A DNA stretch of 48,134 bases. Origin: a virus. Lineage: Duplodnaviria; Heunggongvirae; Uroviricota; Caudoviricetes. Under the pieces are notes generated by a model. That model ran no database searches. It was not told the origin of the DNA and saw nothing but the letters and a program-made list of their open reading frames with translations. Made by a program: the position numbers and the translations under genes. This document shows positions 15,765 through 48,134 of the stretch, piece by piece. Location: the IMG/VR virus record IMGVR_UViG_2651869782_000034; one strand, written 5' to 3'. How positions within the stretch are numbered: position 1 is the first letter of the stretch; every line of letters begins with the position of its first letter.

Positions 15765-15839
15765 GGGTCAGTCGTATAAAGGTCATTACGGAAGGCTGTT
15801 AACCTTCTTATCGTGGTTCGAGTCCACGCTGTCCCGCCA
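15765..15839 (+). tRNA. tRNA-Asn-like (anticodon GUU), slightly degenerate stems
   Basis: Anticodon arm GAAGG-CTGTTAA-CCTTC, T arm CGTGG-TTCGAGT-CCACG, 3' CCA; one mismatch each in acceptor and D stems. Confidence 0.5.
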
Positions 15840-15844
15840 AATAT

Positions 15845-15920
15845 GCTGGTTTAGCTCCAATGGTAGAGCAGTCGCCTTGTAAGCGAATGGGTAGCGGTTC
15901 AAGTCCGTTAACCAGCACCA
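15845..15920 (+). tRNA. tRNA-Thr (anticodon UGU)
   Basis: Perfect 7-bp acceptor stem GCTGGTT/AACCAGC, D arm GCTC..GAGC with GG, anticodon loop CTTGTAA, T loop TTCAAGT, discriminator A plus CCA. Confidence 0.75.
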
Positions 15921-32928: not shown

Positions 32929-33918
32929 ACTGAAAAGAAAAGTGGCGAAGGGAAAGCTAAGGGCGGTATCGCTCGCGCAAAGTCGCTGACTAAAGAGCAG
33001 CGTTCTGAAATAGCAAAGAAAGCAGCGGCTGCAAGATGGAAGGATAAACCATTAATTGCTACGCATAAGGGATCGTTCCAGCATGAATTCGGGATTGATG
33101 TTGAGTGCTATGTGTTAAATGATGATAACAAAACTGCCGTTATTAGCCAGAGAGGCATGGGAGAAGCGATTGGTCTTGGCGAAGGTGGCAGCAGGTTGCC
33201 AAAGTTTATTCAGGGGAAAACTATTTCTCAGTATATCGGGCATGAATTAAGGGCAAAACTTGAAAATCCTCTTATTTTTCAATACAAACAGGCGGGCACG
33301 AACACTCCAGCTAATCCTGTAATACATGGCTACGATGTAACAATATTAATTGATTTATGTCGAGCAATCTCTAATGCTAAAGCTGAAGGTAAGTTGCTTT
33401 CCAGTCAGGAAGGGATTGCTAAGCAAGCCAGAATCATTATTGATGCATCAGCCAAGGCGGGCATTCAGGGGCTTGTTTATGCTTTGGCAGGGTATGACAG
33501 AACAAAAGAAGAGGTAATTCAAGCATATAAGCGATATGTTGCTGAAGAGGCTCGTGAGTATGAAAGAGAGTTCACCCCTGAACTTTATGAGCATTGGTAT
33601 CGTCTGTATGGTATAGACAAACCAGTTAGAGGGCGACCATGGGCGTTTAAATATCTTACGATAGATCACATTTATTACCCATTAGCCAGAAGTGAAGGAA
33701 AGGTATTTAATTTAGCAAAAACGTCAAAAGAAGAAAAAGGCAGCAAAAACGATAAAATACACCAGTTTTTATCAGAGGTTGGAGTTAAGGCTCTTAGAAC
33801 CCAAATAGGTAAGGTTACTGGTATTGCAATGGTTTCTGATACTCGAGAAGAGTATGAGAAATACATAGATGAAAAGGTTATTGGACAAAGAACCATAGAC
33901 TTAAAAGATAAAGAATAA
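32926..33918 (+). CDS. Hypothetical 330-aa protein with basic N-terminal segment (possible DNA-binding)
   Basis: MTEKKSGEGKAKGGIARAKSLTKEQRSEIAKKAAAARW; start codon lies inside an operator-like repeat. Confidence 0.55.
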   Translation: MTEKKSGEGKAKGGIARAKSLTKEQRSEIAKKAAAARWKDKPLIATHKGSFQHEFGIDVECYVLNDDNKTAVISQRGMGEAIGLGEGGSRLPKFIQGKTISQYIGHELRAKLENPLIFQYKQAGTNTPANPVIHGYDVTILIDLCRAISNAKAEGKLLSSQEGIAKQARIIIDASAKAGIQGLVYALAGYDRTKEEVIQAYKRYVAEEAREYEREFTPELYEHWYRLYGIDKPVRGRPWAFKYLTIDHIYYPLARSEGKVFNLAKTSKEEKGSKNDKIHQFLSEVGVKALRTQIGKVTGIAMVSDTREEYEKYIDEKVIGQRTIDLKDKE

Positions 33919-33924
33919 GAAAAT

Positions 33925-33946
33925 CCCACCGTCAGGTGGGTTTTTT
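33925..33946. terminator. Bidirectional rho-independent terminator
   Basis: CCCACC-gtca-GGTGGG followed by TTTTTT, preceded by AAAA on the other strand. Confidence 0.65.
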
Positions 33947-33971
33947 ATAAGGAGTAATCATGATTTACCCA

Positions 33972-34508
33972 TCAAACAACCCACCAGTTTGCCTGATTGG
34001 ATGCCAGCCTTGCAGTTTTTATGGAATTAATTATGCCATGCTCAAGAGCCTTGTTAGCATCCAAAATGGTCGAGTCTGCTATCAGGGATGCCCACCTAAT
34101 ATGGGTTCCGATGTCGATATTGAACGTCTCAACGAAGCGATCAAGATCGTTATCGAGGCATTTCCCGTACTCTCTCAATCTGGCATGGTCGGCGGCTGGG
34201 GAGGCAAAGCACCATAATAGAGGATGTAACAGGAATCTTGATAATGGGTTTGCGAAACGTTCTGAGCCAGCCAGGAAAACGATATTAGCTATGGATTCAA
34301 CATTGCTTATGTTGTGAGTTCTAACGGTAACAGGGAGTGACTTAAGAAAGTTATACGCAGTAAAGCCAGCGGCAGTTTCCCCTCCCTGACTTGATATATG
34401 GATATTTAATTCAGTTGCGCCTTGAGATAATGCGGTGAGACAGTGGTTCTGAAGTTGCCCAACAGTGGCAGTGTTAACGGGGCATAAGAAATGAATTGTG
34501 TGCAGCAT
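33972..34508 (-). CDS. Clp-fold serine protease (ClpP-like, short form)
   Basis: HISSQGG vs ClpP INSPGG; ES-IANIVFLAG aligns to the ClpP active-site Ser; LLHPL aligns to MIHQP His; ATG overlaps mnt stop (TAATG). Confidence 0.7.
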   Translation of the reverse strand: MLHTIHFLCPVNTATVGQLQNHCLTALSQGATELNIHISSQGGETAAGFTAYNFLKSLPVTVRTHNISNVESIANIVFLAGSERFANPLSRFLLHPLLWCFASPAADHARLREYGKCLDNDLDRFVETFNIDIGTHIRWASLIADSTILDANKALEHGIINSIKTARLASNQANWWVV

Positions 34509-34756
34509 TATTTTTCATCCTTAGCATACATGGTCTTTAGCGTCTCAAGCAGCGCCTCTTTGAATTTGTCAGCTTCTTGCTGAGCAAATGACTCAACTGA
34601 CTTTGGCGACCTATCTTCATCAATCGCGGCTTGCAAAATCATGACGATCTCGGAGTTAACAGAGCGACCATTTTTTGATGCTCTGACAGCAAGAGCCTCG
34701 CGTAAAGATTCAGGGATTCTTACCGTAGTTGGAGAAATTGACACACCCTTTGCCAT
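34508..34756 (-). CDS. mnt: Mnt-like ribbon-helix-helix repressor
   Basis: RIPESLREALAVRASKNGRSVNSEIVMILQAAI and C-terminal coiled coil parallel P22 Mnt; divergent from arc. Confidence 0.8.
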   Translation of the reverse strand: MAKGVSISPTTVRIPESLREALAVRASKNGRSVNSEIVMILQAAIDEDRSPKSVESFAQQEADKFKEALLETLKTMYAKDEK

Positions 34757-34779
34757 ATCACACCTTTGGTATTCAATTT

Positions 34780-34834
34780 GATAGCAAAGTGTATGCAAAA
34801 AAATTTTGACTAGATATACTCACTTTGCTATCTT
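34780..34834. promoter_or_regulatory. immI control region: inverted 12-bp repeats GATAGCAAAGTG / CACTTTGCTATC flanking candidate Pant
   Basis: Repeats at 34780-34791 and 34821-34832; -35 TTGACT 34806-11 and -10 TATCTT 34829-34. Confidence 0.55.
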
Positions 34835-34870
34835 TTGTATTCGAAAAGAGTTGTTTGTGTGGAGGGTAAC

Positions 34871-35023
34871 ATGGAGAAAGAAATAAGTAAGATTTTGGTA
34901 AGGATGCCGCAGTCGTTAAAGGATGCTATAGGTAGCAGGGCAAAGGAAGAGTGCAGGTCGTTTAACTCAGAGGTTATCAAGCGCCTGATAGACAGCTTGA
35001 AGAGAGAGGGGGTAATGGTATGA
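34871..35023 (+). CDS. arc: Arc-like ribbon-helix-helix repressor
   Basis: MEKEISKILVRMPQSLKDAIGSRAKEECRSFNSEVIKRLIDSLKREG parallels P22 Arc. Confidence 0.75.
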   Translation: MEKEISKILVRMPQSLKDAIGSRAKEECRSFNSEVIKRLIDSLKREGVMV

Positions 35024-35223
35024 GTAAAGAATGTTGTTTCTGCGGCATTAGCGAATCAGACGCTGATCAAACATACATTTACTCTAAAGAAACAGGTCGG
35101 ATGCTGTGTAGTGACTGCGTGTTGGACATCATAAGATACAAGCATCTTGGATGTTCTGCCAGCATTAGCAATATAGGTGAAGTATATGAAGGGAAAGATA
35201 TAACTGATAGAGCAGAAAGTTGA
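35020..35223 (+). CDS. Small zinc-ribbon-like protein between arc and ant
   Basis: Two Cys pairs (CCFCG ... CSDC); ATG overlaps arc stop. Confidence 0.45.
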   Translation: MSKECCFCGISESDADQTYIYSKETGRMLCSDCVLDIIRYKHLGCSASISNIGEVYEGKDITDRAES

Positions 35224-35285
35224 AGCCCCAACTGCGGTAACAGTCAGGGCTTCGGTATCAACAAATCGTCTTAGGAAATATTGAC

Positions 35286-36164
35286 ATGAAAAGTATAGCA
35301 AAGGCACAAAACGATTTCACCATCTTCAAATTCGGCGACAGTGAAATCCGCGTCATCAACAAGTGCGGTGAGCCGTGGTTTGTAGCTAAAGATGTTTGTG
35401 ATGCTTTAGCTTTGACTAACTCACGCAAGGCGCTTACTGCACTTGATGACGATGAAAAGGGAGTAACTTTAAGTTACACCCTTGGTGGTGAGCAGAATCT
35501 AAGCATTGTGAGCGAATCAGGTATGTATACATTGGTTCTGCGCTGCCGCGATGCAGTCAATAAAGGTTCAGTCCCGCACAAATTCCGCAAGTGGGTAACA
35601 GCAGAAGTTCTGCCTTCAATTCGCAAACATGGCGAGTATGTTAAAGGAAAGAAAACCACTGTTGAGGAAAGAACACCGCTACGCGATGCAGTAAACATGC
35701 TGGTAGGAAAGAAAGGACTTCGCTATGACGATGCATACAATATGGTTCATCAGCGTTTTGGTATTGACAGCATTGATGAACTTTCAATTGAACAAATCCC
35801 GCAAGCTGTAGAGTACATCCACAGGGTAGTGCTTGAAGGTGAGTTCATCGGCAAACAAGAGAAGAAAACCAACGAGCTTTCTGCAAAAGAAGCAAACAGC
35901 CTTGTATGGTTATGGGATTATGCCAACCGCTCACAGGCATTATTCCGCGAACTGTATCCGGCGCTAAAACAAATTCAATCGAACTATTCCGGCAGATGTC
36001 ATGACTGCGGTTATGAGTTCTCCCGTATTATCGATATGGCGAGAGATGTTTTAATCAACCATACACGAGATGTTGATATTAATGAGCCAGACGGACCAAC
36101 GAATCTTTCCGCATGGATGAGACTTAAGAATAAAGAATTACCTCCTTCAGTACATAACTACTGA
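35286..36164 (+). CDS. ant: Antirepressor Ant (Bro-N domain)
   Basis: Bro-N motif [30 protein letters not shown]; follows arc as in P22 immI. Confidence 0.85.
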
Positions 36165-36182
36165 CAGATAACCAACGCAACG

Positions 36183-36207
36183 ACCCAGCTTCGGCTGGGT
36201 TTTTTTA
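36183..36207 (+). terminator. Rho-independent terminator after ant
   Basis: ACCCAGC-ttcg-GCTGGGT followed by TTTTTTT. Confidence 0.65.
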
Positions 36208-36264
36208 TGCCCAAAATTCACCGTAGCCATGCTGCGGCGATTCCTTGTATCTGGAGCAAATTAA

Positions 36265-38427
36265 ATGACAGACATTACAGCCAATGTTGTAGTGAGTATG
36301 CCTTCGCAACTCTTCACTATGGCGCGCTCTTTTAAAGCCGTAGCCAATGGCAAAATTTATATCGGAAAAATTGACACTGACCCGGTAAATCCAGAAAACC
36401 AGATCCAGGTTTATGTGGAGAACGAAGATGGCTCTCATGTTCCTGTTTCGCAACCAATCATCATTAACGCTGCTGGTTACCCGGTATATAACGGACAAAT
36501 TGCCAAATTCGTTACTGTACAGGGCCATTCTATGGCTGTTTATGATGCATACGGTGCGCAGCAGTTTTATTTCCCTAATGTGTTGAAGTATGAGCCGGAT
36601 CAATTAAGGTTGGAGCTTGAATCATCTGGTGGAGCAGGATTGATAGGTGGTGTTTCGAAGCCTATTACTTTTTTTGGTGCTATTGGTGATGGATTAACAA
36701 ACAATACGCAGGCATTTAACGATGCAGAGATATTAGAATTCAATGACATCTACATTCCTGATGGTGTTTATAATGTAAATAATATTAACTTAAATAAGAG
36801 ATATTGGGGGCCTGGCATAGTAGTGATTAATTACCAGACTGAATATTCTGGCTCTGGTGTTAACGACATGACCGTGTCAGGAATATACAATGGACAGCAA
36901 GATCTAAATGCAATTGTAAGAATAAAAGAAGCTTCAAATCCTGATAAGCTTGAATTCAGTACAGATAATGGAGTTACATGGCATGACACGATAGACGTGT
37001 ACAATCCAATCGATGACAGTGTATCTCCGCAACCAATCGTAATACTTGCAGGCGGGGTGGATTTTTTCGTGAGTGGATTGAAGATAAACTTTTCTTCAAC
37101 CACTGGACATACAGTAAATGACTCATGGTCATTTTTCATTCCTTCCAATCCATCAGTAATAAACACGGGAAGTGGCAGCATCGTTAAATCAGGAAGCGTT
37201 ATTTTTAATGTTAGCGGAAACAATGATACTAATACTTCCGCTGGAAAAGACTCATTAGGCGGTGGAAACGTAGGAGCTAACAATACCGCATATGGGTGGA
37301 AGAGTTTGCACTCAAACACTACAGGATACGCAAATACCGCGTCTGGGATTCAGTCTATGGAAAACAATAAGACTGGTAAAAACAATTGTGCATACGGTGC
37401 TGATTCTCTAAGAGCTAACGTATCTGGTTCTGATAACGTAGCGGTTGGGGTCTTTGCGTCCGGAGCAAACACAACCGGGTACGGTAACACTGGACTTGGT
37501 AACGATGCCAATAGGTACAATGAAACAGGATTCGGAAATACCGCAGCGGGTGTGCAGGCACTGTACCACAACAAGGCCGGTAATGAGAACACAGCTTTCG
37601 GTGAATACGCATTACGCGGAGGAAATTCCAGCCTACCTACGGGAACATCCATTCAGTATTCCGTCGCTGTAGGAGCTAAAGCCGGTTTCAACGCGTTAGG
37701 TAATAATAATACAGCTATAGGTTACGAGGCGCTATATTCTGCATCAGGATCTGATAATGTTGGTATTGGATTCGATGCAGGGTTTAAAGTAACGGCTGGT
37801 GCTTTCAATGTATTTTTAGGTTCTAATTCTGGTAACGGGTCAGAGCAGGCTACAGATGTGACAAACTGCGTCCTTATCGGAGATAATACAAAATCAACCG
37901 GAAGTAACGCAGTAGCTATCGGTAGTGGGGTAATTGCCGCTCAGAATACTGTAGCTATAGGTAATAGTGAGCATGAATTATTCTTGCATTATGGGAAATT
38001 TATACCACAAATTGATAATGCTTTTGATATTGGTGGGCCGGATGCGAGATATAAAACAATATATGCAACTACAGGAATGATAAATACATCAAATGAAATG
38101 TTGAAAACAAAACTAACAGACATTGATGTTGCTGAAAAAAAAGCTGCACTAGAAATAAAAGATAATATTAAAAAGTTTAAGATGCTGGATTCTGTTGAGG
38201 TAAAGGGATTTGATGGTGCTAGGTGGCATTTTGGTGTTGGAGCTCAAACTGTTGGTAATATAATGAGGAAGCACGGACTTGATCCTAGTAAGTATGGGTT
38301 TTGGTGTCACGATAAAACGCATCGCGAACACATGACTGGAAATATAGATATCTTTTGTGAAAGTTATGGTATAAGATATGACGAACTTGCAATGTTTATA
38401 TTGGCATCAATATCTTTATGTGAATAA
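36265..38427 (+). CDS. Tailspike: P22-type head-binding N-domain, repeat-rich beta-helix, C-terminal S74-like chaperone domain
   Basis: [11 protein letters not shown]...[19 protein letters not shown]...VTVQGHSMA matches P22 gp9 N-domain; NTAxGxxAL repeats; SNEMLKTK near C-terminus. Confidence 0.9.
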
Positions 38428-38499
38428 ACTTTGTAAATGAAGTGAATTGCAAATCCTTGTACTTGATTGCAAGGCTTTGTGCTCTTCGATAATGGTTAA

Positions 38500-38519
38500 G
38501 GTGGATCACTCCACCTTTT
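38500..38519 (+). terminator. Candidate terminator ending the late operon
   Basis: GGTGGA-tcac-TCCACC followed by TTTT. Confidence 0.5.
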
Positions 38520-39150
38520 CATCAATCCAGTCCGCCCACCACTGCATCATTTCTCTGCGCTTAACGTAGCGGATGCCTCACTATCACACGGTGATAGTCC
38601 ATTGCTGCTTTGAAGAATGGATAGAGAACTGAGGATAAAAAGATATCCCAAAACCCAAAATCTCATCTTTAGGATTTGCAGAAAGGTAGGCGTGAACAAA
38701 TACCTGCGCATGAAAACGGAACTAGTCCAGATGTGATGTTTGTGGTGATCACATACATCATTAACGATGCTCGTTATGGTGAGTTTGATGACTACCCGCT
38801 GAAGTGAAAATTGTGTTGTGTACCAAATTGCGTACCAAACTAAAATCACAAATCATGAAACCCTTGTTCATGGCGGTTCTTAGGGGTGTTGCGCGTAATC
38901 GTGAAACAAAAAGGTAGATTGTTGCTTACCGTCATTCATCATTAGGTTAAATCCGTTATTTCTGCTGTCTGCCAGAGTATCAAATATCACCGTGCTAATC
39001 AGCTTTAGCGCGACAATTTGGCAGCGAGTGGCAACAGATCATGTCAGATAAAAATGAGGTAGTAGTCACATTTTCTTGCACTTTATTCCAGCCAGTTCAT
39101 AAGTATTTCCGTAAAAAGAACAGCTATTTGAAACACCTGAGGGTTTGCTG

Positions 39151-40317
39151 TTGAAACGCCGTCTTATTATTGCTGCTTCTTTGTTCGTTTTTAATTTATC
39201 GTCTGGTTTTGCGGCGGAAAACATTCCTTTTTCACCTCAGCCTCCAGAGATTCATGCCGGGTCCTGGGTATTGATGGATTACACCACCGGTCAGATTCTC
39301 ACCGCGGGTAATGAGCATCAACAGCGCAATCCCGCCAGCCTGACAAAGCTGATGACGGGCTATGTCGTGGATCGTGCTATCGATAGTCATCGCATTACGC
39401 CAGACGATATTGTCACCGTGGGGCGCGATGCGTGGGCGAAAGATAATCCGGTGTTTGTCGGTTCTTCACTGATGTTTCTGAAAGAGGGCGATCGCGTATC
39501 GGTACGTGATTTAAGCCGTGGTTTAATTGTGGATTCCGGAAATGACGCTTGTGTTGCTCTGGCTGACTATATTGCCGGTGGGCAACGGCAGTTTGTTGAA
39601 ATGATGAACAACTATGCCGAGAAGCTGCATCTCAAGGATACGCATTTTGAAACAGTGCATGGTCTGGATGCACCTGGCCAGCATAGCTCGGCTTATGATT
39701 TAGCTGTGCTTTCTCGCGCTATCATCCACGGCGAGCCCGAGTTTTATCATATGTACAGTGAGAAAAGCCTCACCTGGAACGGTATCACTCAGCAAAACCG
39801 TAACGGGTTATTGTGGGATAAAACCATGAATGTTGACGGCCTGAAAACGGGTCATACTTCTGGTGCCGGGTTTAATCTCATTGCTTCGGCTGTGGATGGG
39901 CAGCGTCGTCTCATTGCAGTGGTAATGGGGGCTGACAGTGCAAAAGGTCGTGAGGAAGAGGCAAGAAAATTACTGCGTTGGGGGCAACAAAACTTTACTA
40001 CGGTGCAAATTTTGCACCGTGGGAAAAAGGTCGGAACGGAACGCATCTGGTATGGCGATAAAGAAAATATCGCCCTGGGAACGGAACAAGAGTTCTGGAT
40101 GGTGCTACCGAAAGCCGAAATTCCACATATCAAAGCCAAATATACCCTTGATGGTAAAGAACTCACCGCGCCAATTAGCGCCCATCAGCGGGTAGGGGAA
40201 ATTGAACTTTATGACCGTGATAAACAGGTGGCGCACTGGCCGCTGGTTACCCTGGAATCTGTCGGGGAAGGCAGCATGTTTTCCCGGCTGAGTGATTATT
40301 TCCACCATAAGGCCTGA
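39151..40317 (+). CDS. dacD: D-alanyl-D-alanine carboxypeptidase DacD (PBP6b)
   Basis: Signal peptide and SxxK, SGN, KTG penicillin-binding motifs; sequence recognised as E. coli DacD; TTG start. Confidence 0.9.
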   Translation: MKRRLIIAASLFVFNLSSGFAAENIPFSPQPPEIHAGSWVLMDYTTGQILTAGNEHQQRNPASLTKLMTGYVVDRAIDSHRITPDDIVTVGRDAWAKDNPVFVGSSLMFLKEGDRVSVRDLSRGLIVDSGNDACVALADYIAGGQRQFVEMMNNYAEKLHLKDTHFETVHGLDAPGQHSSAYDLAVLSRAIIHGEPEFYHMYSEKSLTWNGITQQNRNGLLWDKTMNVDGLKTGHTSGAGFNLIASAVDGQRRLIAVVMGADSAKGREEEARKLLRWGQQNFTTVQILHRGKKVGTERIWYGDKENIALGTEQEFWMVLPKAEIPHIKAKYTLDGKELTAPISAHQRVGEIELYDRDKQVAHWPLVTLESVGEGSMFSRLSDYFHHKA

Positions 40318-40435
40318 CCTTTCTTTTGCAGCAGACTGGCAGGAGTGCGAGTCTGCTCGCATAATCAACACTCATTCCTTGTGGTTTTAATATTGCAACT
40401 ATACTGTATATAAAAACAGTGTTAGTGGAGGCGTT

Positions 40436-40909
40436 ATGAACTACGAGATTAAGCAGGAAGATAAACGTACCGTTGCAGGTTTCCATCTTGTTGGCCCGTG
40501 GGAGCAGACGGTAAAGAAAGGTTTTGAGCAGTTGATGATGTGGATAGATAGCAAAAATATTGTGCCGAAGGAGTGGGTTGCTGTCTATTACGACAATCCG
40601 GATGAAACACCCGCCGAAAAATTACGCTGCGACACCGTCGTGACGGTACCGAATAACTTTACGCTCCCCGAAAACAGTGAGGGCGTCATTCTGACAGAAA
40701 TTTCAGGTGGTCAGTATGCGGTGGCGGTGGCTCGTGTAGTCGGTGATGATTTTGCTAAACCCTGGTATCAGTTCTTTAATAGCCTCTTGCAGGACAGTGC
40801 CTATGAAATGTTACCAAAGCCCTGCTTCGAGGTTTACTTGAACAATGGCGCGGAAGATGGGTACTGGGATATCGAAATGTATGTTGCGGTGCAGCCAAAA
40901 CATCACTAA
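40436..40909 (+). CDS. sbmC: DNA gyrase inhibitor SbmC (GyrI)
   Basis: [39 protein letters not shown] recognised as SbmC. Confidence 0.9.
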
Positions 40910-41106
40910 TTCATCTCAGGGCGGTGTGTTGACGCGAAGACCACTCTTTTTTTGAAAGTGAAAAGAGTAAGATGCGCCTTTCAATTTTTTCGCTCCTGCC
41001 GGGAAATTACACTGTTCCCGGTTTGTCCGTCGGATAATTCAGAGGCGCGCCTTCTGGCCGACAGATGAGTTATGAGCGCTTTTAATCTTCATTACGGAGT
41101 TTCTGT

Positions 41107-42165
41107 GTGCGTGCCGATAAGTCATTAAGCCCGTTTGAAATCTGGGTATACCGCCATTACCGCATTGTGCATGGTACTCGGGTCGCGCTGGCATTCCTGC
41201 TCACTTTTCTCATTATCCGCCTGTTTACTATCCCGGAAAGCACCTGGCCGCTGGTCACCATGGTGGTGATTATGGGGCCAATCTCGTTCTGGGGGAACGT
41301 TGTCCCTCGTGCCTTCGAACGTATTGGCGGTACGGTGTTGGGTTCGATTTTAGGTCTTATCGCTCTGCAACTGGAGTTAATTTCGTTACCGCTGATGTTA
41401 GTCTGGTGCGCGGCGGCGATGTTTCTTTGCGGTTGGCTGGCGCTGGGCAAGAAACCGTATCAAGGATTATTGATTGGGGTGACGCTGGCAATTGTTGTGG
41501 GTTCCCCGACAGGTGAAATTGATACGGCGTTATGGCGAAGCGGCGATGTGATCCTCGGCTCTTTACTGGCAATGTTGTTTACCGGTATCTGGCCACAACG
41601 CGCGTTCATCCACTGGCGCATTCAACTGGCGAAAAGTCTGACCGAGTATAATCGGGTCTATCAATCGGCATTCTCACCGAACTTACTCGAACGCCCACGT
41701 CTGGAAAGCCATCTACAAAAACTGCTGACCGATGCCGTGAAAATGCGTGGGCTGATTGCGCCCGCCAGCAAAGAAACCCGTATTCCAAAATCGATATATG
41801 AAGGTATCCAGACCATTAATCGCAATCTGGTTTGTATGCTGGAGTTGCAAATCAATGCATACTGGGCCACGCGCCCCAGCCATTTCGTGTTATTGAACGC
41901 GCAAAAACTTCGTGATACCCAGCACATGATGCAGCAAATACTGCTGAGCCTTGTTCATGCGCTGTACGAAGGTAATCCGCAGCCGGTTTTTGCCAATACG
42001 GAAAAATTGAACGATGCTGTGGAAGAGCTGCGTCAGTTGCTGAATAACCACCATGACCTGAAGGTTGTGGAAACACCAATCTATGGTTATGTGTGGCTGA
42101 ACATGGAAACGGCACATCAGCTTGAGTTGCTATCGAGTCTGATTTGCCGGGCCTTGCGCAAATAA
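41107..42165 (+). CDS. yeeA: Inner membrane protein YeeA
   Basis: GTG start; multi-TM N-terminus; recognised as E. coli YeeA. Confidence 0.85.
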   Translation: MRADKSLSPFEIWVYRHYRIVHGTRVALAFLLTFLIIRLFTIPESTWPLVTMVVIMGPISFWGNVVPRAFERIGGTVLGSILGLIALQLELISLPLMLVWCAAAMFLCGWLALGKKPYQGLLIGVTLAIVVGSPTGEIDTALWRSGDVILGSLLAMLFTGIWPQRAFIHWRIQLAKSLTEYNRVYQSAFSPNLLERPRLESHLQKLLTDAVKMRGLIAPASKETRIPKSIYEGIQTINRNLVCMLELQINAYWATRPSHFVLLNAQKLRDTQHMMQQILLSLVHALYEGNPQPVFANTEKLNDAVEELRQLLNNHHDLKVVETPIYGYVWLNMETAHQLELLSSLICRALRK

Positions 42166-42336
42166 TTCCTGAACTTCAGAATCATCTTGCTGCTGCTTCG
42201 ATTCAGCAAGGATAAAGGGTATGATAGTGAAAAGGGATAAAAGCATTGTCATCTGCGGCAGCTATGAGTAATGTTGGCCCTAACGAATAGCGGTTGCTTA
42301 AACGAATCCGACTCTCACATTATCAGGGGTATAAAA

Positions 42337-42666
42337 ATGGAAACTACCAAGCCTTCATTCCAGGACGTACTGGAATTTGTTCGTCTGTTCCGTCGTAAGA
42401 ACAAACTGCAACGTGAAATTCAGGACGTTGAGAAAAAGATCCGTGACAACCAGAAGCGCGTCCTGTTGCTGGACAACCTGAGCGATTACATCAAGCCAGG
42501 GATGAGCGTTGAAGCAATCCAGGGCATCATCGCCAGCATGAAAGGTGACTATGAAGATCGCGTTGACGATTACATCATCAAAAATGCCGAGCTCTCCAAA
42601 GAACGCCGCGATATCTCCAAAAAGCTGAAAGCTATGGGCGAAATGAAAAACGGCGAAGCGAAGTAA
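42337..42666 (+). CDS. yeeX: YeeX (DUF496)
   Basis: [41 protein letters not shown] recognised as YeeX. Confidence 0.8.
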
Positions 42667-42766
42667 TTCCTGTTTTATTCAATGAGGGTTGCCCGGCAAC
42701 CCTCAGTGCTCATTGATTCTTATCTGTGTATCACCGTCATCATTCTCATCTGAGAACCTATCGAAA

Positions 42767-42960
42767 TTAGCGACAGCCTTCTTCTGTATGCAGCAAGGCA
42801 AAAAGTTCTGTAACTCCATTGTTATTAACCGCACTGGTTACTAACACGTTGTGCGCTCCAGCTTCCCGTAACCAACATTTCACCAAAGATGTTTGTTCCA
42901 TACTGGCTAAATCTGCTTTGGTTACTACTCCAATGACCGGGTGATTCATGGCCCGGTAGG
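42767..42960 (-). pseudogene. C-terminal fragment of YeeP/YfjP-like GTPase
   Basis: PVIGVVTKADLA...AGAHNVLVTSAVNNNGVTELFALLHTE resembles GTPase C-terminus; no N-terminus; abuts IS66 remnant. Confidence 0.35.
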
Positions 42961-43019
42961 GCGTTTTTACCTCTAATTCCTGCTTCAGCGCTGAGATTCC
43001 TGCTTGTTGCCGGAAAAGC

Positions 43020-43187
43020 AGGCACCTGCCGTCTGAACGGTATCGATCCGGAAGCGTATCTGCGCCATATTCTGAGCATACTGCCGGAATGGCCCTCCAA
43101 CCGTGTTGACGAACTCCTGCCATGGAACGTAGTTCTCACCAATAAATAAGCGTCAATACGGTGCTCCGTTGACGCTTACTTTAATCC
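43020..43187 (+). mobile_element. IS66-family remnant: transposase 3' end plus terminal inverted repeat
   Basis: Encodes CRLNGIDPEAYLRHILSILPEWPSNRVDELLPWN; followed by GCGTCAATACGGTGCTCCGTTGACGCTTAC (reverse complement starts GTAAGCG). Confidence 0.55.
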
Positions 43188-43563
43188 GTTTTCTGAGCTT
43201 AGATTTTTCTGTTCCTACCCAGACCGTGGATTTGGAATTCATTTTTTGTCAGGTCAATGCTAATCGTTAAAACGGCCATAACGCACCTCCACTGGAAGGT
43301 TTATCAGTAATATCCTACCGTTGCTTCATGGTCGGGGCGTCCATTCCATTATTATCGGTTTTCCTTTCTGTTTATAAATGAAAACGCCAGCTGTATTCAG
43401 GCTGGCGTCAGGGGAAATGAAGCCTGTTGAGTGAGATTCACCGGTTCTGGTGCAGAAGCTGCAGATGGCGCAGGGTAAGGACATCTTCTCTTGCCTGCTT
43501 AATACAGGACAACAGTGCTGTTTCTGTGGTTAATGGCACTATACCCTGCATCACTGCATTGTC

Positions 43564-43758
43564 TTACAGCAACTGGTGAGGGCTGGCATAAGTTGCCGGT
43601 GTTTCGGTAGAGTCACGGTCATCCACCACGCGGAGTGAATAACCGTTTTCAGCGGCCTTATTAATCAGTTCAGTGATATTAACACCATCAATGTCAACGA
43701 CAATGTGCCCCATATCCAGCGCCTGTACGTTAACGCTGTCGGCTTCCAGTGTCATCAT
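43564..43758 (-). CDS. yeeW: YeeW
   Basis: 64-aa ORF recognised as CP4-44 YeeW; immediately downstream of cbtA. Confidence 0.65.
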   Translation of the reverse strand: MMTLEADSVNVQALDMGHIVVDIDGVNITELINKAAENGYSLRVVDDRDSTETPATYASPHQLL

Positions 43759-44128
43759 TTCGCCTCCGGATACTTACCCAGGGTAATGTTATTTACCGTT
43801 CTGTAATTGTCGCGGGTCATCAGGCCGGTCGCCCTGCGAGCCCGGAGGATATCGATGCTGTTTATTAACTGAGAGCGGGTACAGGCGCTGAATCCCGGCT
43901 GGTCGGTAGCACCAGCGCGTATTTTTCCACGAGAAAGTTCACCGCATCACACAGTGAAATGCCTGCCTCAATATGCTGCTCAATCACACGTTCATCGGCA
44001 AAAGGTGTGTCATTCTGTGTGAGGCCATAGTGCTGGTCCAGCAGTCGGGACAGCAGTATCTGCCAGATTTCAACAGGAGACGGGCGAGAACTGGCCGCCT
44101 GCCCGGGTAATACAGGTAATGTTTTCAT
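43759..44128 (-). pseudogene. cbtA: cbtA (yeeV) toxin gene with frameshift
   Basis: N-terminal 73 aa match CbtA then frame is lost ([11 protein letters not shown]); C-terminal TRDNYRTVNNITLGKYPEAK is present in another frame at 43759-43815. Confidence 0.6.
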
Positions 44129-44216
44129 ACTGAAGATTTTCCTGATATGCAGATATAAAAATGGAAAAGTGGCGTGGTGAAAACACCAGGCCGTAGCAGA
44201 AGGCTATTCTGGAGAG

Positions 44217-44585
44217 TTAATTTTTCATTTCGGGCGTCGGATAAACAGCCAGATAAACGTAACCACAACTGCTGAGGGTATCGGCTTTGCAGGTCAGCCC
44301 TTTTGCATACAGCGTGACGGTATGCTGATGGCGGGGATTCAGTTCACCGCTGGTGAGCATGAGTTCCAGTTGTTTCATCAGCAGCGGAAAGGCCTGGTCC
44401 AGGTGGTACGCATCTGCATCGCTGAACAGGCCTCTGATACCGGCGCGGTCGGCAAGGTAATGCAACCGGTTACCCTCCTGCACCAGACGTGCCCCGAAAC
44501 AGGGCGTCACGGTGCAGGGCAGCCCCCACCAGGGGCGGTCGTGATTGTCGTCGGGAAGTGTTGTCCCGGGGAGTGTGTCTGACAC
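44217..44585 (-). CDS. cbeA: CbeA (YeeU) antitoxin
   Basis: 122-aa ORF recognised as CbeA. Confidence 0.85.
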   Translation of the reverse strand: MSDTLPGTTLPDDNHDRPWWGLPCTVTPCFGARLVQEGNRLHYLADRAGIRGLFSDADAYHLDQAFPLLMKQLELMLTSGELNPRHQHTVTLYAKGLTCKADTLSSCGYVYLAVYPTPEMKN

Positions 44586-44658
44586 GATAAAATCCTTACA
44601 GAAAATCGGCTAAGAATGGTCCGGTAGTGGCGATAATTCTGCTCATCAGAATTCCCAC

Positions 44659-44880
44659 TCAGTTCAGGGTGACGCTCATCAGCCGGACATACGGACCAAA
44701 ACTGTCCTTACGGCGTTCAGCAAACACGGCCAGCACACCGGGAATATCCTGCACTTCACGACCGGTATACGCTTCAGCACTGCCGTGCCAGCGGTATTTA
44801 CCGGTACAGAACGGAAAAAGACGGGATGTCGGATGTTGTTGGTGAATACGCATGGCTTCACCACGGGTGATAATTTTCAT
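44659..44880 (-). CDS. yeeT: YeeT (DUF987)
   Basis: 73-aa ORF recognised as YeeT. Confidence 0.8.
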   Translation of the reverse strand: MKIITRGEAMRIHQQHPTSRLFPFCTGKYRWHGSAEAYTGREVQDIPGVLAVFAERRKDSFGPYVRLMSVTLN

Positions 44881-44942
44881 AATGGGATACCTCTGAAGAC
44901 AGAAGATAAAAGTGAAAACAGGTGTGATGTGGTTGTGAAGGG

Positions 44943-45419
44943 TTAAAGCAGACCATGTTCGGCAAAGGAGAAAACCTGGTTGCCACCGACTATCAGATGG
45001 TCCGGCACCCGGATATCCACCAGGCCCAGTGCCTGTACCAGACGTTCGGTGATAAGCCGGTCTGCCTTACTGGGTGTGACTTCACCGGACGGGTGATTGT
45101 GTGCCAGTACCACGGCAGCGGCATTGTGGTACAGGGCGCGTTTAATCACTTCCCGGGGATGGACTTCCGTGCGGTTGATGGTGCCGGTGAAGAGGGTTTC
45201 ACCGGCAATCAGCTGATTCTGGTTGTTCAGATACAGCACCCGGAATTCTTCACGCTCCAGTCCCGCCATGTTCAGAATCAGCCATTCCCGTGCTGCACGG
45301 GTGGAGGTGAAGGCCACGCCGGGTTCATGAAGATGGCGGTCCAGGGTTTTCAGGGCCCGTTGAATGAGGCTGCGCTCGCCGGGCGTCATCTCTCCGGGCA
45401 GAAAGGAAAGTTGTTGCAT
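44943..45419 (-). CDS. yeeS: YeeS, RadC-like JAB-domain protein
   Basis: JAMM-like motif HNHPSGEVTPSKAD; start MQQLSFLPGE. Confidence 0.8.
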   Translation of the reverse strand: MQQLSFLPGEMTPGERSLIQRALKTLDRHLHEPGVAFTSTRAAREWLILNMAGLEREEFRVLYLNNQNQLIAGETLFTGTINRTEVHPREVIKRALYHNAAAVVLAHNHPSGEVTPSKADRLITERLVQALGLVDIRVPDHLIVGGNQVFSFAEHGLL

Positions 45420-45434
45420 TGTGCTTCTCTCCAT

Positions 45435-45914
45435 TCAGTCGATGATGCGCATAATGGCGCTGCATTCCGGATGCTGCAGGGCGTAATCCCGCAACCGGTA
45501 ATAATGAACCGTCATGGCATAATTCTCCGTACGACAGGCATGATGACTGTACGTCATCAGACAGGCGGTAATACCGGCGGCTTCCGGGCTCATTTCTGCG
45601 CGGTTACCGTTCATGGCATTGAACAGTACCCATGTTTCGTCATCATCATCATCCGGTTCGGGTGCCATAAATGCCCCGCCGTTGTTCAGGGTGTACAGAT
45701 TCCAGATACCACCGCAGTAGTCTTCGCACAGACGGTCCATCCAGCCGAAGACACGGGGCTCCAGGGTCACCCACTGTGGAATGAGGCCAAAATGCTGCGG
45801 CCAGAAGCTGATGCGCTGTTCATCAGGGACGAGGCTGGCAACCAACTGAGGCGGATTATTCTCTGGTGTTGTAGCTGAATAAATTGTGGGGGTATTCTGA
45901 GAAACGGTTTTCAT
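45435..45914 (-). CDS. Antirestriction protein (ArdB/KlcA-like)
   Basis: 159-aa acidic protein in the usual position upstream of radC-like gene in CP4 elements. Confidence 0.65.
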   Translation of the reverse strand: MKTVSQNTPTIYSATTPENNPPQLVASLVPDEQRISFWPQHFGLIPQWVTLEPRVFGWMDRLCEDYCGGIWNLYTLNNGGAFMAPEPDDDDDETWVLFNAMNGNRAEMSPEAAGITACLMTYSHHACRTENYAMTVHYYRLRDYALQHPECSAIMRIID

Positions 45915-45995
45915 GAGATAACTCCTTAAATAACAAATAAATGTGTGTTTTTCAGGAACGAAAGCTGAATGATTCCCTCACTCAGGGAAACGGCA

Positions 45996-46814
45996 TCAGC
46001 GCAGGCTCTCCAGCATCGTTTCTGCCATCACCCACAATGCGCGATTGAGCTTAATGTCGGTATCAATGCTGTGAATGGCCCGGGTATGGATACGTTTTCC
46101 TTTTGCACTGCGACCGGAAATCCCGCCTTTCAGCATATTCTCCTGGATGGTCTGATATGCGCTCCACAGGTCCTTACCGTAATCCTCCCGGCGTCGCGGC
46201 GTCAGAATGTCGGCGGTGGTGACGGGCTGATGTTCGTCACCATAACGGTAAGTCAGTGCCGCCTGTGCCAGCGCCTGGCGTGCCGGTGGCGGCAGGACCA
46301 GCGACTGCATGGCATCACGCTTCTCCTCTATCCGGTCAAACACGCCCACCACCTCGTAAGCCCCTTCGATAACTTTCTCCACTACATTTCCCCGGTGTGG
46401 AACACGCACTTCCCCCAGAGACTGGCCACAGACGCCCCCGTTCTGGCAGACGAACCTGAAGTAACCCGGCAGCATCTGGTAGCTGGAGGTACCGTCATGA
46501 GAGTTGAGCAGAATAATTTCAGGGACATGTTCTCCGTTTATCTCTCCGGCCCGCCGCAGACGCAGCATGTGTTTTGTGTATCCCCGGCGGCCCGGGTCGC
46601 GCACACGGGTCTGGCAGGCGAAGAACGGCTGAAAGCCTTCCCGCTGCAGATTTTCCAGGACGGTAATGGTGGGAATGTACGCATACCGTTCACTGCGGGA
46701 GGTATGCCGGTCTTCCCCAAAAATACTGGGTACATAGTGCATCAGTTCTTCGTGTGTCAGCGGACGGTCACGGCGTATCTGGTTTACATGACCAAAACGA
46801 CTTGCTAATCGCAT
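45996..46814 (-). CDS. DUF932-family protein
   Basis: 272-aa ORF in the position of DUF932 genes of CP4-type elements. Confidence 0.6.
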   Translation of the reverse strand: MRLASRFGHVNQIRRDRPLTHEELMHYVPSIFGEDRHTSRSERYAYIPTITVLENLQREGFQPFFACQTRVRDPGRRGYTKHMLRLRRAGEINGEHVPEIILLNSHDGTSSYQMLPGYFRFVCQNGGVCGQSLGEVRVPHRGNVVEKVIEGAYEVVGVFDRIEEKRDAMQSLVLPPPARQALAQAALTYRYGDEHQPVTTADILTPRRREDYGKDLWSAYQTIQENMLKGGISGRSAKGKRIHTRAIHSIDTDIKLNRALWVMAETMLESLR

Positions 46815-47024
46815 GATTTGCTCCTTATGAATGAGTTAGCGGTATAAATGAAAAAGCTGCGTCTCCCGGAGAAGACGCGGCCTGACGGGTGAAATGAATA
46901 AGGTTTATTGTCTGAGAGGCCTTTCACTGGCGAGCCACGCATTAAGCGGCTTTCCGGTAACAATGGCTGGGGCTGTATTTACCTTTGATATTAATAATGT
47001 GCAGAGAAACGCATGGTTTACTCC

Positions 47025-47435
47025 TTAGATTTTAAGTTTGTCCTGGGCTACAACGACAGGTTTTCCGGATGTGTCGATGACTCCTACCGTCGGTACGCCA
47101 TTTTTGATTTCGAAGAACGGTTTGTTGCTACCTGAGCACAGTTGATTGTCCCCGTATTCAATCATTTGTGCTTTCCCGGTTTTCAGGTTAACTACCGAGA
47201 CAGTGTAGTCGTAGCACCAGGCACCACCACGTTCAAGCACGAAAACATAGCTGTTATCTTTATAGTTGAACTGATTCTTTGTCTGGCAATTCATACCGTC
47301 AATTTCGGTACAGGAAAACGCTTCTGTAGTATTAACGTATTTGATGTTATTTGGCAGTTTTACTTGTTTCGCAGTAGCGAAGACAGAGAACAGAATAGTT
47401 ACAGCAACGAGTAAAGTTTTGATAAAAGTTTTCAT
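47025..47435 (-). CDS. Secreted hypothetical protein
   Basis: Signal peptide MKTFIKTLLVAVTILFSVFATA; four Cys. Confidence 0.5.
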   Translation of the reverse strand: MKTFIKTLLVAVTILFSVFATAKQVKLPNNIKYVNTTEAFSCTEIDGMNCQTKNQFNYKDNSYVFVLERGGAWCYDYTVSVVNLKTGKAQMIEYGDNQLCSGSNKPFFEIKNGVPTVGVIDTSGKPVVVAQDKLKI

Positions 47436-47450
47436 GATAGACTCCTTAAA

Positions 47451-48134
47451 TTAGTTAACCGCAGCTACGTAGTTTTTCACCAGATACGCGAATTCATGCA
47501 CGCCAATTTCACCGAACCAAACCAGGTAGGCCGGGTCATCTAAACCAAAGTAACGGTAGCCAACAACTTCATGGGTTTTTGGGTTATAGAGTGTTACGAT
47601 AAAGTCCCAGCCGCAGGTATTGGCTTTGCAACCGTCGCCCTGGAACCAGACTGTACCGTTAATGTTTACTGGCGTGATACCTCCACCAGGGCCATCCATA
47701 TAGCCGCCTTTACCGAACATGCCGCTCAGTCCGACCGGTTTTAATGCTTTGTCGATAGCGGCTTTGTAGGTAGCGTCACCTTCGTACAACTCGTACGTTG
47801 ATGGACACGCTCCAGGTTGTTCAGCCCAGGCTTCTGGGTTACAACTAAGAGCTTGTTTTACGGTAGCCGCTTCTGCGTTAAAGTTAAAGCCCGTGAACAG
47901 AACCGCCAGAAATAACATAAGGGTATGTAAACGTTTCATTGTAAATATTCTTCCGTTGTAAATGGCGCTGGAAAATTTCTCATCAGTGAAACCTTCCGGA
48001 AGTTTCCCCCCCTTGTATGATGTATATCGCCAGTATTTTATTTCATCCCGGCTGTAATTTTTATATTCCCCGGCACGTGCAATAACGCTGACCAGAGATA
48101 TAAGGCTCATTAATAACTTTACAGGTAATTTCAT
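47451..48134 (-). CDS. Secreted hypothetical protein (start uncertain: ATG 48134 at window edge or internal ATG 47936)
   Basis: ORF begins at the last base of the window; internal MKRLHTLMLFLAVLFTGFNFNAEA is a second signal-peptide-like segment. Confidence 0.4.
   Translation of the reverse strand: MKLPVKLLMSLISLVSVIARAGEYKNYSRDEIKYWRYTSYKGGKLPEGFTDEKFSSAIYNGRIFTMKRLHTLMLFLAVLFTGFNFNAEAATVKQALSCNPEAWAEQPGACPSTYELYEGDATYKAAIDKALKPVGLSGMFGKGGYMDGPGGGITPVNINGTVWFQGDGCKANTCGWDFIVTLYNPKTHEVVGYRYFGLDDPAYLVWFGEIGVHEFAYLVKNYVAAVN

Follow-up and report, generated by a model that had tools for sequence, protein, structure and literature searches.

A frameshifted, probably inactive cbtA allele beside an intact cbeA in a CP4-44-like island of Escherichia coli

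One of the closest described relatives of the locus analyzed here is the CbtA/CbeA module of CP4-44 in E. coli K-12, in which the genes lie in the order yeeS, yeeT, cbeA, cbtA, and yeeW, followed by yoeD/yoeF remnants, tmaR, yeeA, sbmC, and dacD. In CbtA, R15 is a contact residue for MreB and F65 a contact residue for FtsZ (PMC5624674), and a review summarizing Tan et al. assigns the interaction with FtsZ to the N-terminus and that with MreB to the C-terminus (PMC3920263). CbeA is reported to act on the targets of the toxin and not to bind the toxin (PMC3827094). It shields FtsZ assemblies generally and protects from several FtsZ inhibitors that act in different ways (PMC5624674). Moreover, CbeA neutralizes YkfI and YpjF, and the three antitoxins cross-neutralize the three toxins (PMC5371832). 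The YkfI/YafW pair on CP4-6 and the YpjF/YfjZ pair on CP4-57 belong to the same families, lie on other islands, and are intact in K-12; both pairs are absent from the DNA analyzed here. For DUF5983-adjacent sequence in cbtA operons, it has been proposed that a real domain is read via a frameshift, a proposal that does not concern cbtA itself (PMC13294457).

We analyzed a 48,134-nt stretch of DNA (IMG/VR record IMGVR_UViG_2651869782_000034), referred to in full as the window. On its minus strand, positions 43564-45434 contain yeeS (RadC-like JAB), yeeT (DUF987), cbeA, cbtA, and yeeW (DUF5983_N). An antirestriction gene and a DUF932 gene are located on the 5′ side of this block, while yoeD/yoeF remnants, tmaR, yeeA, sbmC, and dacD are located on the 3′ side of yeeW. 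This region, in which the gene order follows the annotation of K-12 MG1655 and ATCC 11775, forms the right arm of a cryptic island that resembles CP4-44. Further upstream, the island diverges from that in K-12, which has flu and yeeR, whereas the window has the DUF932 gene, the antirestriction gene, and hypothetical genes. At its right end (42767-43554), the island is a chain of remnants that includes a 3′ fragment of a DUF957 gene following yeeW (43438-43554, minus strand), a C-terminal fragment of an IS66-family transposase (about 42985-43150, plus strand), and a fragment of EutP/PduV (yoeF). Positions 1-38500 are mostly a P22-like prophage that adjoins dacD; the nearest phages are phiv205-1, CUS-3, and Sf6 (coverage, 58%; identity, 96.8%). 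This prophage carries a sar antisense RNA (35218-35284, minus strand), two phage-borne tRNAs (Asn and Thr; 15765-15920), and a tailspike-like open reading frame (36265-38427). None of the complete E. coli genomes of the collection covered more than 73% of positions 33000-48134.

The cbtA (yeeV) gene occupies 43755-44128 on the minus strand from its ATG at 44128 to its original TGA and comprises 374 nt, compared to 375 nt in K-12. The alignment to cbtA of K-12 MG1655 places the lesion between 43909 and 43908, where the Arg74 codon CGT has lost its G, such that GTG CGT ACC in K-12 corresponds to GTG C-T ACC in the window. A functional member of the CbtA family has a single open frame of ~124 codons that encodes the whole domain. 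The frame in the window is broken at codon 74 and reaches a stop after only 87 codons (43865-44128, minus strand). Frame 0 encodes CbtA residues 1-73 (MKTLPV...EKYALV), with the YALV codons at 43921-43910 just ahead of the deletion, followed by 14 unrelated residues and two consecutive TAA stop codons (43867-43865 and 43864-43862). With the G lost from the Arg74 codon, translation would run through these 14 out-of-frame codons to the stop at 43867-43865, giving a product of 87 amino acids. CbtA residues 75-124 (TDQPGF...YPEAK; 50 amino acids) are displaced to the -1 frame at 43758-43907 on the minus strand, in a stretch of 150 nt that is identical to that in K-12. This remnant ends at the TGA at 43757-43755, which overlaps the ATG of yeeW at 43758 (ATGA). 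The 64-residue yeeW product, the N-terminal domain of DUF5983, is encoded at 43564-43758 on the minus strand, and the gene has its own GGAGG 4 bases upstream of the start. Matches to the Pfam profile CbtA_toxin (PF06755) are divided accordingly, with frame 0 covering positions 1-73 of the 112 profile positions (E = 1e-36) and the -1 frame covering positions 75-112 (E = 2.6e-13). The deletion takes away 51 of the 124 residues of CbtA and, with them, a conserved helix at the C-terminus.

The original prediction, which was made from the sequence before any search, had a CbtA-like frame of 73 residues that shifts directly after YALV and a displaced frame that ends at the yeeW start; the translation together with the divided Pfam match bears out the former, and the overlap of the TGA with the yeeW ATG the latter. 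Three of its details need correction. What had been taken for the shift at 43864-43870 is the premature stop (AGT TAA at 43870-43865), which lies ~40 nt 3′ of the lesion; the C-terminal part that is displaced comprises 50 residues instead of 20; and the gene ends at 43755 and not at 43759. The alignment to K-12 cbtA that it had proposed as a check resolves the change to one missing G in codon 74.

The genomic context is that of the CbtA family, with cbeA 88 nt upstream, yeeT and yeeS further upstream, and yeeW downstream. The spacer between cbeA and cbtA (44129-44216, minus strand) is identical to that in K-12. In the 1,033-nt segment spanning cbeA to yeeW, two substitutions separate the window from K-12 in addition to the missing G. 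One of these is the nonsynonymous change L38Q (CTG to CAG) at 44016 on the minus strand within the truncated cbtA frame, and the other gives G108 in CbeA, which has D108 in K-12. On the basis of its reading frames, the cbtA gene of the window belongs to the CbtA/YeeV family by descent yet is a pseudogene. The NCBI pipeline PGAP annotates the identical sequence in ATCC 11775 and O157:H7 as "frameshifted," and the 15 RefSeq carrier records that we inspected are all labeled "cbtA ... frameshifted." The allele is, in this respect, an ordinary decayed toxin gene that is already marked in PGAP/RefSeq and is nothing new in kind. In the literature on cbtA frameshifts, pseudogenes, or orphans, we found no paper on this allele or its frequency.

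Single-base indels are frequent as assembly artefacts, and the original prediction had offered a sequencing error as an alternative to toxin inactivation, in which case the true gene would be intact. We searched 5,426 complete E. coli genomes with a 40-mer centered on the deletion; the intact allele is not found by this 40-mer, with which it shares only two 20-nt blocks that are shorter than the 28-nt seed. The junction was present in 1,508 of these genomes (about 28%), nearly always in a single copy, and these genomes come from many laboratories and sequencing platforms. In the 16 complete-genome carriers inspected (15 RefSeq records and one Shigella flexneri genome), the junction is always at the same locus. 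ATCC 11775, APEC O1, SMS-3-5, and many other genomes share the whole 374-nt allele with 100% identity. The indel is, therefore, not private to one assembly; nor does it lie in a homopolymer or a low-complexity context, the surrounding bases being GTGC|TACC. The window also carries G at 43549, a linked variant that we found in all 17 frameshifted and none of the 8 intact sequences compared. We consider that there is next to no chance that the missing base is an error in the window; population frequency, sequence context, and the linked variant together argue that resequencing would not restore the 124-codon frame. The other alternative of the original prediction, inactivation of the toxin in a cryptic element, is supported by a heritable 1-bp deletion, the loss of 51 of 124 residues, the RefSeq label, and a 5′ part without signs of purifying selection (see below). 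We therefore regard the cbtA gene of the window as very probably a type IV toxin gene with a real and inherited loss of function, located in a CP4-44-like island.

A full-length toxin could still be made if ribosomes slipped by -1 upstream of the deletion, spontaneously or in a programmed manner, in which case the frameshift would serve regulation. From codon 59 on, the -1 frame is open, and the A-rich GAA AAA UAC at 43927-43919 is located 10 nt upstream of the deletion; by our reasoning, a -1 slip at this point would yield a protein of 124 residues that differs from CbtA only at residues 70-74. However, the interval from codon 59 to the stop contains no X XXY YYZ heptamer, and at GAA AAA U, only one tRNA could re-pair. 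Downstream, we found weak hairpins and no convincing stimulatory structure, such that cbtA of the window has neither of the two features, heptamer and stimulatory structure, that define programmed -1 frameshifting. Scans of 43300-45600 for Rfam families and for promoters and terminators gave nothing relevant. Moreover, the same A-run is present in the intact alleles, and one uninterrupted open frame is the norm in the family. Finally, other copies have independent frameshifts at another site, as predicted for decay. Based on these considerations, recoding is a highly improbable explanation, and a decayed gene is the reading that we retain.

The other site is the A5 run itself (GAA AAA TAC; 43922-43926, minus strand), which is unbroken in the window and has lost one A in other copies of the family. 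In the protein database, we identified 87-residue products that combine YkfI/YpjF-type N-termini with the same tail as the window product. In other 87-residue products, one A of the A5 run was lost independently, and the frame runs to the same stop (..LVENTRWCVPTSRDS..). These A5-loss proteins (P0011, P0012, P0015-P0018, P0048, P0052, and P0055) mostly represent single-member clusters, and some may be homopolymer sequencing errors. The independent A5 losses argue that disabling frameshifts are recurrent in the CbtA family. Exchange between its members is suggested by a metagenome contig (L004, 240-1250) from the same chromosomal locus, in which a patch of ~250 nt extending from the 3′ end of cbeA to approximately codon 22 of cbtA is YkfI/YpjF-like, while the flanks match the window exactly, the frameshift included. 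This mosaic points to gene conversion between paralogous modules, in a contig of low read coverage in which a chimeric assembly is possible.

To estimate how common the allele is, a count of intact alleles is also required, and a 41-mer spanning the K-12 junction was rejected for this purpose because paralogous toxins elsewhere share the identical 41-mer. Instead, we used a locus-specific census of the variant at 43549, which lies 15 nt past the yeeW stop and 360 nt downstream of the deletion. On the minus strand, this position is G in 17 of 17 frameshifted and A in 8 of 8 intact alleles, i.e., linkage is perfect in 25 sequences, and it offers a convenient marker of the haplotype with the frameshift. 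Genome-wide, the G variant was found in 1,574 genomes and the A variant in 2,324, each in a single copy, and the former number agrees with the 1,508 genomes that have the junction. The full arm from yeeW to tmaR is present in 3,139 genomes and the yeeW/DUF957 junction in 3,898. Relating the 1,508 junctions to these 3,139-3,898 loci, the frameshift is present in roughly 40-50% of the copies of the locus.

Going by strain names, we take the carriers to include phylogroups B2 (ATCC 11775 and APEC O1), F (SMS-3-5), E (O157:H7), and B1 (O111:H8 and O104:H4); a Shigella flexneri genome is also among them. Intact cbtA is found in K-12, presumably a phylogroup A strain, and in several clinical isolates. 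Among species-representative genomes, a 22-mer across the junction had a single match, in a Shigella flexneri. A single origin is favored by the perfect linkage over 360 nt and by the fact that the site is not repetitive. Flanking variants ~1 kb away (42671-42877) are mixed relative to the frameshift, indicating that the frameshifted haplotype has recombined onto different backgrounds. The allele would, then, have arisen once and spread by descent and recombination. The his/gnd/rfb region, which we take to be a recombination hot region, lies about 20-30 kb from the locus. The haplotype is widely distributed, yet there is very little diversity within it. A more speculative interpretation is that this is an adaptive toxin-null haplotype that spread across phylogroups by recombination and left CbeA on its own to stabilize FtsZ and MreB or, in an "anti-addiction" role, to protect against CbtA-carrying islands that arrive, or, alternatively, that the 87-residue remnant has a mild FtsZ-directed activity; we consider this interpretation doubtful.

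In our search for a solved structure related to CbtA, we found none, the matches being weak and local (E = 0.11). We therefore used an AlphaFold2 model of an intact homologue, which was built from a 22-sequence alignment and has moderate confidence (mean pLDDT 70; highest in the first three helices and lowest in the C-terminal part). The model is all-helical, with helices at residues 18-34, 46-54, 59-75, 82-101, and 106-116, and, according to this model, the break at residue 74 takes out predicted helices 4 and 5. The lost segment includes residues 86-99, which are invariant in 22 intact family members. Toxin activity would probably be lost completely.

The retained part leaves room for a different reading, i.e., that the 87-residue protein is an attenuated yet active toxin, e.g., an FtsZ inhibitor that affects division only, and is kept as useful, which would also account for the retention of cbeA. 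Both R15 and F65, which are needed for the interactions with MreB and FtsZ (PMC5624674), are encoded in the retained 73 residues, and the review cited above places the interaction with FtsZ in the N-terminus (PMC3920263). The model is at its most confident in the first three predicted helices, the start codon and the spacer are unchanged in the window, and codons 1-73 are free of nonsense mutations in all 17 frameshifted sequences. On the other hand, the lost segment contains the stretch that is invariant in the family, and carriers exist in which cbeA is deleted or truncated by a nonsense mutation. The substitutions also speak against a maintained function. In a sample of 24 alleles of this locus (16 frameshifted and 8 intact), the frameshifted alleles had four nonsynonymous changes (A12T, R15H, A71V, and the L38Q of the window itself) and no synonymous change, whereas the intact alleles had 1 nonsynonymous (R106S) and 10 synonymous changes. 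The two sets of counts differ (Fisher's exact p = 0.0037) in a test that comprises 15 sites only and in which several of the synonymous changes, five in one intact allele and three in another, are clustered, probably as gene-conversion tracts, and so are not independent events. All four substitutions in the frameshifted alleles are, thus, nonsynonymous, and one affects R15. Weighing these points, we find it unlikely that a useful residual activity has been kept.

The pattern of substitutions fits relaxed constraint on truncated cbtA. The truncated gene would have escaped purifying selection and would, therefore, be a pseudogene. No second disabling mutation was found in the frameshifted alleles of the sample, and the 3′ remnant has zero changes among them, which suggests a young allele or simply a low level of diversity. 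Regarding the distribution of the individual changes, L38Q occurs in the sample only in the window, ATCC 11775, and GF131; R15H, at the residue reported to contact MreB, occurs in the frameshifted strain 2011C-4315; and A12T is present in eight carriers, which are the same eight that have N38K in yeeW.

The cbeA (yeeU) gene is intact, as had been predicted originally. It occupies 44217-44585 on the minus strand, starts with GTG, and encodes 122 amino acids that match the Pfam profile CbeA_antitoxin (PF06154) over positions 1-100 of 101 (E = 4.3e-53), i.e., over essentially its full length. The survival of the antitoxin gene alongside a dead toxin gene is plausible. CbeA would work independently of its own toxin by stabilizing FtsZ and MreB polymers and by neutralizing the paralogues YkfI and YpjF, which are usually also carried, and this independence may explain why cbeA is intact in the window. 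In O157:H7 PV15-279, frameshifted cbtA occurs together with intact-type junction copies in CbtA-family genes elsewhere. In two other strains, cbeA is damaged. Strain 58-3 has kept the frameshifted cbtA, while its cbeA is reduced to the last 63 nt and the rest is replaced by zinc-ribbon genes, and USMARC-51688 has the frameshifted cbtA together with a W20* mutation in cbeA. That some carriers of the frameshift have lost cbeA indicates that the gene is dispensable. When we compared cbeA between backgrounds for signs of decay, there was no difference (6 nonsynonymous and 7 synonymous changes in frameshifted backgrounds vs 17 and 16), in counts that are dominated by gene-conversion patches.

The locus is a classic example of a disabled chromosomal toxin gene with a surviving partner, and it holds little new biology. 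Its consequences are practical. Surveys of CbtA that rely on domain hits overcount functional toxins, as the allele scores well above the Pfam threshold and occurs in over a quarter of the complete E. coli genomes. All functional work has relied on the K-12 allele, which accounts for only about half to 60% of the natural copies at the locus. Finally, the frameshifted allele is a natural truncation at residue 73 that could be used to ask whether the three N-terminal helices suffice against FtsZ.

The known systems closest to the locus include those in ATCC 11775 (EAS44_RS10510) and O157:H7 PV15-279 (ECpv15279_RS14500), in which the deletion, the locus, and the neighboring genes are identical to those in the window. 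The ATCC 11775 allele is 100% identical over the 374 nt, and the window differs from these strains in the adjacent P22-like prophage. K-12 has the same locus and gene order with cbtA open over 124 codons, whereas the gene in the window is frameshifted at codon 74. A close parallel for the fate of the module is the decay described for orphan or "anti-addiction" antitoxins, which it resembles in that the toxin is disabled, the antitoxin frame is open, and the antitoxin can neutralize related toxins. It is unlike the orphan-antitoxin model in that CbeA is reported to act on the toxin's targets, so that its retention needs no toxin (PMC3827094).
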